Shown here: positions 28,031 through 56,457 of the stretch, piece by piece
Layout of the letters: each line of letters starts with the position of its first letter
How positions within the stretch are numbered: the stretch's first letter is position 1
IMG/VR virus record: IMGVR_UViG_3300005326_000040
Span: 32,001-96,000 of that record
Source of the DNA: a virus
Taxonomy: Duplodnaviria; Caudoviricetes
DNA length: 64,000 nt
Reading direction: 5' to 3' (one strand)
The notes under the pieces: model-generated
Told to the model about the DNA's origin: nothing
What the model saw: only the letters and a program-made list of their open reading frames with translations
Databases searched by the model: none
Made by a program: the position numbers and the translations under genes

Positions 28031-28146
28031 GTTTTCCTTCAAACTATTCGGTACAAACATATATCAAAGTATTATCAGCCTAACAAGTCTTTTGCTGGCT
28101 GAAATGCTATTGTGAAAATTATAAGTAAGAACTGGCCGGAAATTGG

Positions 28147-39919: not shown

Positions 39920-39980
39920 CGCCGATGTTTGCCCCTTTCTCAGCCTTCGGCTGGGGGAGGGGCGTTCTTTCGGCGGTTAA
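39920..39980 (+). repeat. Intergenic hairpin repeat H1
   Basis: CGCCGA-TGTTT-GCCCC-stem/loop-GGGGC-GTTCT-TTCGGCG-GTTAA, with G.U pairs in the upper stem. Confidence 0.92.
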
Positions 39981-40257: not shown

Positions 40258-40363
40258 TGGGTTTAGCTCAAGGGTAGAGCAACTTATGTTTCAAGGTCCT
40301 TCCTAACCAGCGGGACACCGAAACATAGGGATATATCGAGTTCAAGTCTCGATAGCCCAGCCA
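40258..40363 (+). ncRNA. tRNA-like RNA with greatly extended anticodon arm
   Basis: D arm GCTC-AAGGGTA-GAGC, 10-bp stem CTTATGTTTC/GAAACATAGG enclosing a GTCC/GGAC hairpin, T arm ATCGAG-TTCAAGT-CTCGAT, 3' AGCCCA-G-CCA. Confidence 0.75.
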
Positions 40364-40760: not shown

Positions 40761-40823
40761 CCGCCGACGTTTGCCCCTGTATCGGCCTTCGGGCCGGTAT
40801 GGGGGCGTTCTTTCGGCGGTTAA
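40761..40823 (+). repeat. Intergenic hairpin repeat H2
   Basis: Consensus arms with a cUUCGg tetraloop. Confidence 0.92.
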
Positions 40824-41095: not shown

Positions 41096-41158
41096 CCGCC
41101 GATGTTTGCCCCTGCTTTGGCCTTCGGGCCATTGTGGGGGCGTTCTTTCGGCGGTTAA
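41096..41158 (+). repeat. Intergenic hairpin repeat H3
   Basis: Consensus arms, UUCG loop, abuts the AGGAGG RBS. Confidence 0.92.
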
Positions 41159-41170
41159 AGGAGGCGCAAT

Positions 41171-41458
41171 ATGAGTGCGCTCGAACGCAAGAAGGCCGCG
41201 AAGCTGGAAGCGCGGCGAAAGAAGTGTATTCTCTACGAGACAGCCAAGAAGGTTGTCTATAGCGCTGGCACTAAACAGGTGTCAGCAATGGTAAGCCGTC
41301 CGATGGCTTGCCCTCACTCGGACTTCACATACGACTTGTGGGAAGTCGTTGTTTTCAACAGCGACAATTCCACCTGTCGTGCCAGTTGCTATCTTCCAAA
41401 GGAGGAGGCTCTTGCTCTTGCTCGTAATTGGGCAATTGAGTTTGGAGCCATTCTTTGA
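41171..41458 (+). CDS. Hypothetical protein
   Basis: 95 aa. Confidence 0.75.
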   Translation: MSALERKKAAKLEARRKKCILYETAKKVVYSAGTKQVSAMVSRPMACPHSDFTYDLWEVVVFNSDNSTCRASCYLPKEEALALARNWAIEFGAIL

Positions 41459-41461
41459 TAC

Positions 41462-41524
41462 CCGCCGATGTTCGCCCCTTTCTCAGCCATTCTGGCTGGG
41501 GGAGGGGCCTTCTATCGGCGGTTA
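41462..41524 (+). repeat. Intergenic hairpin repeat H4
   Basis: Consensus arms. Upper stem nearly identical to H1. Confidence 0.92.
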
Positions 41525-41528
41525 AGAA

Positions 41529-41666
41529 TGCCAGATATCGTCCCCACTTCCTTTTCCCGCAAGGATTAGGGGGTCAAGTTGAAGAAGGACAAACCGGGAT
41601 GAACAATCCTGGAGGGACGGAGAGCTTTCGAGTTCTCAGGTGGTTCAATTCCATCATCTGGCACCA
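41529..41666 (+). ncRNA. Expanded tRNA-like RNA (138 nt)
   Basis: Acceptor GCCAGAT/ATCTGGC-A-CCA, T arm GGTGG-TTCAATT-CCATC, variable-arm hairpin GAGAGCT-TTCG-AGTTCTC, GTCCC/GGGAC long-range stem. Confidence 0.75.
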
Positions 41667-41762
41667 AAGCAAGTGTGTATCTTTAGGAGTTTGGGATTGT
41701 TTTTGCTCCGGAGTTCGGGAGCAAAGCATAATCATTCTCCTAAAGAACACAAAGGAGGAGAG

Positions 41763-41999
41763 ATGCTGACGAAAACGAATGCAAGAAGGTTGGTGGAGAT
41801 TGTTGCGCAGATAAAAGACTTGTCTGCCAAGAACGGCATGATCGATCAACGCCACGAAGATGTGGCGAAGATTCTGGGGACGTATAAGGAGGATGAATAT
41901 CCTTCTGAAGAAGACCCCGAGTGGCGCAAGAACAACGACGAGATTGGCAATCTCTACAACGAGCTTCTGTCCATCATCAACACAAGTCTCCCCCTGTAG
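41763..41999 (+). CDS. Hypothetical protein
   Basis: 78 aa, AGGAGG RBS. Confidence 0.75.
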   Translation: MLTKTNARRLVEIVAQIKDLSAKNGMIDQRHEDVAKILGTYKEDEYPSEEDPEWRKNNDEIGNLYNELLSIINTSLPL

Positions 42000-42005
42000 A
42001 GACTT

Positions 42006-42067
42006 CCGCCGATTACCCGCCCCTTTTCAGCCTTCGGGCTGAGGAGGGGCGCCCTTTCGGCGGTTAA
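42006..42067 (+). repeat. Intergenic hairpin repeat H5
   Basis: Consensus arms, UUCG loop. Confidence 0.92.
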
Positions 42068-42109
42068 AAGCTACACCCTATCCCAAGTATGTTCTCGTTC
42101 TCTCCATTA

Positions 42110-51770: not shown

Positions 51771-51847
51771 AGGTAGAGTAAATGGGAACACAAGGCCCGA
51801 CCAATCATTCGATTGGGGTGAAGGTTCGAATCCTTCTCTATCTTCTA
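51771..51847 (+). ncRNA. Anticodon-less tRNA-like RNA (ATTC tetraloop)
   Basis: Acceptor AGGTAGA/TCTATCT, hairpin CCAATC-ATTC-GATTGG, T arm GAAGG-TTCGAAT-CCTTC, 3' T-CTA, degenerate D arm. Confidence 0.75.
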
Positions 51848-55932: not shown

Positions 55933-56006
55933 TGGCAAGTAGCTCAATTGGATAGAGCGTCAGCGTTCGCTGAAGGTTATAGGTTCAAATCCTATCTTGC
56001 CTACTA
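55933..56006 (+). ncRNA. Anticodon-less tRNA-like RNA (GTTC tetraloop)
   Basis: GGCAAG/CTTGCC acceptor, TA, GCTC-AATTGGATA-GAGC, TCAGC-GTTC-GCTGA, AGGTT, ATAGG-TTCAAAT-CCTAT, A-CTA. Confidence 0.9.
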
Positions 56007-56387: not shown

Positions 56388-56457
56388 AGATAAGTAGCTC
56401 AATGGTAGAGCGCCAGCATTCGCTGGGGTGCAGGTTCGAGCCCTGCCTTATCTTCTA
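56388..56457 (+). ncRNA. Anticodon-less tRNA-like RNA (ATTC tetraloop)
   Basis: AGATAAG/CTTATCT acceptor, TA, GCTC-AATGGTA-GAGC, CCAGC-ATTC-GCTGG, GGT, GCAGG-TTCGAGC-CCTGC, T-CTA. Confidence 0.9.

Follow-up and report, generated by a model that had tools for sequence, protein, structure and literature searches.

The window analysed here is a 64,000-nucleotide (nt) stretch of DNA that covers bases 32001–96000 of a 338,055-bp IMG/VR virus record (IMGVR_UViG_3300005326_000040), for which CheckV estimates a completeness of 97%. The record represents an uncultured jumbo phage whose probable source is a groundwater metagenome. At positions 41530–41666 of the window, or ~73.5 kb of the genome, lies an element of 137 nt whose predicted RNA combines the top half of a tRNA with a large inserted domain. 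It occupies a 304-nt gap between two genes of the same strand, in an array of small, densely packed ORFan genes that runs rightward, and all features of this gap lie on the plus strand. The upstream edge of the gap is the stop codon of a gene for a 95-amino-acid (aa) protein (41456–41458); 4 nt past it begins a hairpin that belongs to a repeat family (CCGCCGA...UCGGCGG, then UUAA; 41462–41525), and a spacer of 4 nt, the last base of which is U, separates the end of this hairpin from the RNA. On the other side, 14 nt 3′ of the RNA, a leader hairpin read from the sequence (CUUUAGGAG...CUCCUAAAG; 41681–41745) precedes the ribosome-binding site (41751–41760) of a 78-aa gene, and AAAGGAGGAG followed by the ATG of this gene (41763) marks the downstream edge. 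The distance from the 3′ end of the RNA to this start codon is 96 nt. No sigma-70-like promoter was found directly upstream of the RNA; the RNA is probably transcribed as part of this early gene array. Judged from its sequence, the element is best described as an orphan tRNA-like RNA gene of unusual design, and is best placed with the tRNA-like stable RNAs of phages.

The acceptor helix of the RNA is formed by GCCAGAU (41530–41536) and AUCUGGC (41656–41662), which make seven pairs, all of them Watson-Crick, with pair probabilities of 0.87–1.0. The third pair is C3-G70, and the helix hence contains no G3·U70. The discriminator base, A73, is located at 41663 and the encoded CCA at 41664–41666, giving a 3′ strand with an ACCA end at 41656–41666; the base at position −1 (41529) is U and that at +1 is G. 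A linker of two nucleotides, AU, leads from the acceptor to a closing stem of 6 bp, whose strands CGUCCC (41539–41544) and GGGACG (41614–41619) pair with a probability of 0.98–1.0 at the position of an anticodon stem or a D stem. Together with the 69-nt core of three hairpins that it encloses, this stem constitutes a domain of 81 nt. Core hairpin A (41546–41574; pair probability 0.82–0.97) pairs a pyrimidine-rich strand with a GGA/G-rich strand, is interrupted by an internal loop and is closed by a CGCAA loop. Hairpin B (41578–41590) has a weak 3-bp stem and a GAAGAAG loop, and its pair probability of 0.63 is such that the segment may instead be single-stranded and purine-rich. Hairpin C (41594–41612; 0.98–1.0) consists of CCGGGAU and AUCCUGG around a GAACA loop. 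The closing stem is followed, with no intervening nucleotide, by a 7-bp hairpin capped by UUCG and containing one G·U pair (41620–41637), and a single nucleotide separates this hairpin from the T arm (GGUGG/UUCAAUU/CCAUC, also with one G·U pair; 41639–41655; 0.99–1.0).

An original prediction, made from the letters of the window alone, had placed the element at 41529–41666 with a length of 138 nt. The element stands, while its coordinates required correction, the 5′ end being G41530 and the length 137 nt. The perfect 7-bp acceptor, A73, the encoded CCA, the canonical T arm and the UUCG-capped 7-bp arm that it described are all found in the sequence and in the minimum free energy (MFE) fold. 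The core of ~75 nt closed by GTCCC/GGGAC and containing CCGGGAT/ATCCTGG was likewise recovered, although its stem is in fact 6 bp long and encloses 69 nt.

The unconstrained MFE fold of the RNA, calculated with ViennaRNA, reproduces the structure described above exactly, with an energy of −57.2 kcal/mol. Dinucleotide shuffles of the RNA fold at −40.9 ± 4.1 kcal/mol, which corresponds to a z-score of −3.99 for the RNA, and none of the 200 shuffles folds as well. Apart from hairpin B, the helices have pair probabilities of 0.82–1.0, and these are unchanged when 40–120 nt of genomic flank are included. The linkers of the central four-way junction measure 2, 0, 1 and 0 nt. This junction can be labelled in two ways on the basis of the sequence. 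One possible labelling is that of an RNA lacking a D arm, in which the anticodon arm is expanded and the variable arm is long; equally, the RNA could possess an enlarged D-like arm and a tetraloop-capped anticodon-like arm, as in the sibling mimics of the same genome that are described below.

The genome was scanned for a signature composed of a T arm, a 7-bp acceptor within 35–260 nt, a discriminator and CCA. Five sites in the 338-kb genome carry it, namely tRNA-Thr, tRNA-Leu, tRNA-His, a 71-nt mimic and the 137-nt RNA; the 71-nt mimic is the one other site that is not a tRNA. In 100 composition-preserving shuffles, the signature arose 0.06 times per genome, or 0.01 times when an all-Watson-Crick acceptor was demanded. 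The tRNA-like element is real and not a product of chance. The GGA/CsrA-like motifs of the RNA (six in 137 nt) and its anti-Shine-Dalgarno-like strand, CACUUCCUUU, are within the range expected from composition and pairing, and a short-word blastn search of the RNA against the whole phage for an antisense target returned chance-level matches, the best of them 15/16.

ARAGORN does not call the RNA as a tRNA, and the Rfam search proposed with the original prediction, when run with Rfam 15 at gathering thresholds, assigned it to no known family, the tRNA family RF00005 included. A permissive Rfam scan of positions 41300–41900 gave as its best match tRNA-Sec, over the 3′ half, with 18 bits against a cut-off of 47 (E = 0.79). 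Measured against a canonical tRNA, the RNA possesses the 7-bp acceptor, the 5-bp T stem, the UUCRANY T loop, the discriminator and the CCA; the D arm and the 7-nt anticodon loop are missing, and with them any decoding loop. The fold and the sequence uphold the view of the RNA as a tRNA mimic with a CCA end and an additional RNA domain.

By its own terms the original prediction would have fallen if the insert were a recognised intron whose removal gives back a normal tRNA, and the analysis did not bear this out. The default intron mode of ARAGORN is silent on the RNA, and raising the intron limit to 120 nt, with the threshold lowered, yielded only a spurious 181-nt call that extends outside the element. 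Every internal segment of 25–74 nt was also deleted by brute force, leaving 68–96 nt, and all products were run through ARAGORN. Only three equivalent, marginal calls of ‘tRNA-Ser(GGA)’ emerged, with two mismatches in the 5-bp anticodon stem and a D stem of 3 bp, and no deletion restored a normal tRNA. The statement that the RNA is not the alanine domain of a transfer-messenger RNA (tmRNA) is borne out by the C3-G70 pair and by the tmRNA mode of ARAGORN (-m), which makes no call, also when the threshold is lowered. Rfam likewise returns no tmRNA match; the RNA is far too small, and both a body rich in pseudoknots and a convincing tag frame are missing. A Y RNA of the YrlA type was also considered and rejected: no Rfam Y RNA or YrlA model matches at gathering thresholds or at E values up to 10, the motif GNCGAA(N)G is missing from the 137 nt, the RNA lacks a D arm, and its locus at 73.5 kb is ~175 kb distant from the TROVE-domain open reading frame (ORF) at 248.7–249.2 kb of the genome. 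The suggested leucine identity was not supported. A73 and a long extra arm are present; the argument built on them is weak, because in E. coli the leucyl-tRNA synthetase (LeuRS) reads A73 along with tertiary elements of the D and T loops, and the RNA has no D arm. The acceptor of the RNA, with G1-C72, C2-G71 and A73, resembles that of tRNA-Thr at least as much as that of tRNA-Leu.

The nearest known object is the species 1 RNA of phage T4 (rnaC), annotated in the T4 record as a ‘small, stable RNA’, and the likeness is architectural only. Like the RNA described here, rnaC is encoded by a phage, has a canonical T arm, carries long hairpins in place of the decoding arm and lacks an anticodon, and the two are nearly equal in length (139 versus 137 nt). 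When taken from the T4 record and folded, rnaC forms its T arm together with two long hairpins, and its ends pair only weakly (z = −4.6). In contrast to our RNA, it has no encoded CCA and lies inside a tRNA cluster, whereas the 137-nt RNA is located between protein genes. Homology between the two is not detectable in either sequence or structure; a covariance model built from the 137-nt RNA (R1) gives rnaC 7 bits, less than it gives the real tRNAs of T4 (tRNA-Thr, 21 bits; tRNA-Leu, 18; tRNA-Ser, 17). The species 2 RNA of T4 (rnaD), another small stable RNA of the T4 tRNA cluster, has no convincing fold (z = −0.8). We know of no explanation for the role of either of these two tRNA-shaped stable RNAs.

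Class II tRNAs (Leu, Ser, Tyr) and tRNA-Thr share with the RNA the 7-bp acceptor, the T arm, A73 and the CCA, and the class II tRNAs share the extra 7-bp arm as well. Unlike them, the RNA has an 81-nt branched domain for the D arm and the 7-nt anticodon loop, and it scores under the Rfam tRNA threshold. The tmRNAs resemble it in their CCA end and in that a non-tRNA domain interrupts a tRNA-like part made up of an acceptor and a T arm; they differ in their G3·U70 pair, pseudoknot-rich body and tag frame, and are roughly 260–400 nt long, as compared with 137 nt. The same grafting architecture is found in the engineered tRNA scaffold, reportedly described by Ponchon and Dardel in 2007, in which an RNA of interest is grafted at the position of the anticodon stem and is processed and stabilised by the enzymes of the cell. 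That scaffold was designed in the laboratory and retains the D arm, while the RNA would be a putative natural counterpart without one. The YrlA-type Y RNAs are also non-decoding and have a tRNA-like T arm and an acceptor-like helix, but they retain a D arm and the Ro-binding strand GNCGAA(N)G, end in the Ro-binding stem, and are encoded next to the Ro gene (PMC4201824). Further tRNA-shaped RNAs that could direct RNase P (ribonuclease P) and 3′ processing, as the 137-nt RNA could, are the t-elements (PMC1920247), the mitochondrial tRNA punctuation signals and the phage RNAs C4 and M3 (PMC11143913). Signals of the t-element type are small or partial tRNAs, whereas the RNA has a large structured extra domain and an encoded CCA, and its processing is predicted. 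In terms of function, these processing signals and the YrlA-type Y RNAs are the nearest analogies.

The genome holds about ten further tRNA look-alikes that are unable to decode, several of which abut ribosome-binding sites. T-arm-like motifs (a 5-bp stem with a UUCRANN loop) number 32 on the plus strand and 6 on the minus strand of the whole genome; they cluster at 72–88 kb, where ~10 of them are not called as tRNAs. One look-alike, a CCA-ended tRNA-like RNA of 106 nt (window 40258–40363), is situated 1.2 kb upstream of the 137-nt RNA in a gene-free block of ~575 nt. It has canonical D and T arms and an anticodon stem of 10 bp that is extended by a further short stem and a large loop. Five more are mimics in which a 4-nt NUUC loop replaces the anticodon loop (window 51771–51847, 55933–56003 and 56388–56454; genome 99075–99145 and 112577–112647, the last two beginning at what would be window coordinates 67075 and 80577, past the window end). 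Their acceptor and T arms are normal, most have a D arm, two of the five reach the Rfam tRNA threshold, and some stop a few bases short of a ribosome-binding site. A tRNA-like element of 145 nt is found beyond the window, where tRNA-Tyr and tRNA-Ile flank it (genome 231136–231280); its acceptor, D and T arms are accompanied by an ‘anticodon’ loop of 5 nt and by a variable arm that is branched and ~70 nt long.

Several genes of the same phage, all outside the window, belong to families associated with RNA repair: an ORF of the PolyA_pol/tRNA-nucleotidyltransferase family (genome 296282–296665), a TROVE/Ro60-like ORF (248764–249177) and two RNA ligases of the Rnl2 type (PF09414; 151730–152269 and 198734–199303). 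No RtcB, Pth or RF-1-domain protein was found in the phage genome, nor was a class-II 2b synthetase (Ser/Thr/Pro/His/Gly-type). The 14 kb around the TROVE gene contain no Rfam Y RNA, and within ~5 kb of it there is no T-arm motif on the plus strand; one lies on the minus strand at 254282.

Searches for relatives of the RNA covered reference phages, metagenomes and prokaryote genomes. A blastn search of GenBank phages with 7.5 kb around the RNA gave no homologue; an exact 28-mer and a core pattern had none in IMG/VR; and a core 26-mer had no match in 185,579 prokaryote genomes. A gapped pattern anchored on the acceptor matched 46 times in the JGI metagenomes and IMG/VR, mostly in a chance-like manner and in other contexts, with several recurring near-identical stretches among the matches. 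One match is an ordinary tRNA-Thr(UGU) on a 2.4-kb metagenome contig (L092:1037–1159, minus strand), the acceptor stem, A73 and CCA of which are identical to those of the RNA; the first nine bases of this tRNA recur, fortuitously, 48 nt before it begins. The covariance model R1 found only the RNA itself in its own genome, and no homologue in 18 terminase-related viral records, where one match of 15 bits and 90 nt appeared.

A top-half detector run over the whole of two related ~350-kb phages found no counterpart. The long CCA-ended sites that it reported there are ordinary-looking tRNAs with a fortuitous upstream strand that pairs with the 3′ strand, a judgement made by eye for the site at 322639 and less fully for the others. 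A related 361-kb phage contains a hairpin-filled stretch of 203 nt with a 7-bp closing helix adjacent to a canonical T arm and a folding energy of −58 kcal/mol, with no encoded CCA (G010:C1:298059–298261, minus strand); this stretch could represent a further RNA of the expanded tRNA-like kind, or the helix could close it by chance. A route to relatives through synteny is unusable because the five neighbouring ORFs (95, 78, 215, 180 and 254 aa) are ORFans: searches of 5.8 billion and 1.8 billion proteins returned self matches only, the exception being one marginal 20-residue match of the 180-aa ORF (E = 3.7e-5), and the neighbours belong to no PHROG family and, for those scanned, to no Pfam family.

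The RNA displays the features that mark substrates of RNase P and of the 3′-end processing enzymes, namely an acceptor and T stem of 7 + 5 bp that stack without a linker into 12 bp, a canonical T loop, U−1 and G+1, and an RCCA end. Some substrates are cleaved by bacterial RNase P in an RCCA-dependent manner (PMC12710915), and the enzyme also cuts operon mRNAs and, among phage RNAs other than tRNAs, M3 RNA and the C4 antisense RNA (PMC11143913). When a CCA is encoded, RNase E of E. coli cuts 1–3 nt downstream of it, and exonucleolytic trimming follows (PMC2190699). Because the RNA keeps exactly the tRNA half that the end-processing enzymes read, we infer that it is excised from the early transcript. 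In the reading that we tentatively favour, with a confidence that comes close to even without reaching it, a stable CCA-ended RNA would be released by host RNase P and 3′ trimming, the tRNA half would act as a scaffold for the insert, and the early transcript would be cut in the process. The 137-nt RNA would be transcribed within the rightward early gene array, and its acceptor/T-arm minihelix, with U−1, G+1 and the encoded ACCA, would make it a substrate for the tRNA maturation machinery of the host. RNase P would cleave between 41529 and 41530, an endonuclease would cut just past the CCA, and exonucleolytic trimming would then halt at 41666; the tRNA-nucleotidyltransferase-family enzyme of the phage could repair the CCA end. 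A stable RNA of ~137 nt would thereby be set free, in which the tRNA half serves as a chassis for processing and stability and the 81-nt domain of three hairpins, in place of the D and anticodon arms, is the working part. The early transcript would be severed between the 95-aa and 78-aa genes, and a protective hairpin would remain at the 3′ end of the upstream mRNA and another at the 5′ end of the downstream mRNA. That the 81-nt domain is a passenger with a function of its own appears more likely than that it is baggage, because siblings of ~70 nt suffice for the tRNA shape and because the domain is very well folded. The favoured reading also draws on the exact and robust fold, the signature far above chance, the missing anticodon loop, the position of the RNA in the array, the sibling look-alikes, the nucleotidyltransferase-family gene and the architectural likeness to rnaC.

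The locus would also suit an RNA that is nothing but a cut-here signal for an early polycistronic transcript, functionless once excised and carrying its insert as tolerated baggage. It lies between two genes of the same strand with a 3′ hairpin on one side and a 5′ leader hairpin on the other, sibling mimics directly precede ribosome-binding sites, and the t-elements of plant mitochondria offer a precedent (PMC1920247). An 81-nt insert with near-certain pairing and an encoded CCA would, however, be superfluous for cutting, and the next start codon is 96 nt away rather than a few nucleotides, and we consider this account unlikely, if a serious contender. Distinctly unlikely, to our minds, is a bolder proposal that extends the favoured scaffold reading: the RNA would be a natural tRNA scaffold, with an effector domain mounted on a top half devoid of a D arm and excised, capped and protected by RNase P, 3′ trimming and CCA repair. 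Its domain would bind a specific protein (for example the Ro60-like protein, or an RNA-repair or translation factor) or sit on a chargeable CCA end, which would make the RNA kin, in re-wired form, to Y RNAs and tmRNA and not to tRNA. Charging itself is the essence of another proposal, raised in the original prediction, in which a host synthetase reads the acceptor, the discriminator or the extra arm, and the mimic delivers amino acids outside decoding or titrates the synthetase or EF-Tu. The intact acceptor helix, A73 and encoded CCA would permit this, G1-C72/C2-G71/A73 is identical to the ordinary tRNA-Thr, and the 7-bp extra arm is like that of class II tRNAs. Against it stand the lack of an anticodon and of a D arm, elements on which most synthetases of A73 tRNAs rely, the lack of a G3·U70 pair, and the lack of a class-II 2b synthetase in the phage; aminoacylation of the RNA is unsupported, and we rate the proposal as improbable. 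We are just as sceptical of a decayed or insertion-disrupted class II tRNA gene, a non-functional relic with its D/anticodon region overwritten. A single copy without relatives, in a phage with many odd tRNA-like genes that are possibly at various stages of decay, would be consistent with such an origin. Decay is, however, expected to erode helices and not to build a clean four-way junction; the acceptor is Watson-Crick in seven of seven pairs, neither the T arm nor the CCA is damaged, and the segment that stands in for the D/anticodon region has an unusually good fold of its own (the whole RNA at z = −3.99; core pair probabilities of 0.82–1.0, with 0.63 for hairpin B).

The presence of a TROVE-domain ORF and two RNA ligases raises the idea of a Y-RNA-like partner of the phage Ro60/TROVE protein, in which the insert would bind TROVE, the tRNA half would recruit other factors, much as in bacterial YrlA RNAs, and the RNA would end at the acceptor stem. 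The ~5–7 kb around the TROVE gene hold neither a recognisable Y RNA nor a T-arm motif, and bacterial and phage Y RNAs are known to hold tRNA-like domains, one of them being cut by RNase P and given a CCA (PMC4201824). The ~175 kb to the TROVE gene, when YrlA genes adjoin theirs, together with the different topology, the absent D arm, the absent GNCGAA(N)G motif and the silence of the Rfam Y RNA and YrlA models, makes this very improbable. Only the faintest credence can be given to the two remaining accounts. According to one, the gap encodes a protein and the RNA fold is incidental. A frame of 104 codons (41455–41769, plus strand), with a TTG start preceded at 7 nt by GGAG, is indeed open across all 304 nt, hairpin and RNA included, and by our own estimate the chance of at least one open frame among the three of that strand is roughly 2%. 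Its in-frame codon score of −0.089 is nevertheless the lowest of ten local ORFs, its GC content is flat over the three codon positions (0.52/0.46/0.53), its opening 24 codons coincide with the repeat-family hairpin, the other copies of which are intergenic, and the fold statistics would stay unexplained; as read from the sequence, coding in the gap is unlikely. The other account, which fares equally poorly, takes the RNA as an intron-interrupted tRNA, or as one that decodes quadruplets through the UUCG hairpin opened to an 8-nt loop, C-U-UUCG-A-G. This loop can formally be written as Y32-U33-NNNN-R37, and deletion of bases 10–60 yields the marginal tRNA-Ser(GGA) call, the model for which suffers from the mismatched anticodon stem and short D stem noted above. 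The 81-nt insert is far under the size of group I introns, which exceed 200 nt; the pairs C32-G38 and U33-A37 are formed with a probability of 0.85–1.0, and only one nucleotide separates the UUCG arm from the T stem.

Returning to the excised, tRNA-scaffolded RNA, several points weigh against this preferred reading. Going by the smaller sibling mimics, an element of ~70 nt would be enough if the aim were only to cut a transcript, and a function for the insert is pure inference. The RNA has no homologue, and neither covariation nor conservation therefore backs any of its helices or the insert. It is known from DNA sequence alone, in a single metagenome sequence, and the lack of conservation adds to the limits that this sets for now on the value of the find. 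The 104-codon ORF, moreover, spans the whole gap. The interest of the locus lies in the graded series that one large phage carries, from minimal anticodon-less mimics up to a 137-nt four-way-junction form with a CCA and a branched insert, and in the combination of these tRNA look-alikes with RNA-repair genes (Ro60-like, two RNA ligases, tRNA nucleotidyltransferase-family). Were the RNA excised and stable, the engineered tRNA-scaffold trick would have a forerunner in nature, and the RNA would offer a tractable case for the role of non-decoding mimics in infection, be it as transcript punctuation, as decoys or as partners of repair proteins.

The phage has no close relative among GenBank phages. 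Its large terminase is of the GpA type, and the phage can be assigned by sequence to a large clade of huge phages because this terminase has many relatives on metagenomic contigs of 250–500 kb; the nearest of them, with 76% identity, is encoded on a 256-kb NCBI contig (CACUWD010000001.1). The hairpin that precedes the RNA is one of a family of long intergenic hairpins in the window (39920–39975, 40761–40823, 41096–41158, 41462–41525 and 42006–42068), a pattern that has no match in IMG/VR. The flanks of the copies are conserved and near-identical (CCGCCGAUGUU...UCGGCGGUUAA), and their upper stems vary; a stop codon of the rightward array precedes every copy, and some copies were flagged as terminator-like. 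Among the tRNAs that ARAGORN calls in the genome is one of the suppressor type at 28046–28121, with the anticodon UUA, which reads UAA; tRNA-Ile(UAU) and tRNA-Asn(AUU) are called in addition. Long ORFs are normal under code 11, so any reassignment of a stop codon would be partial.

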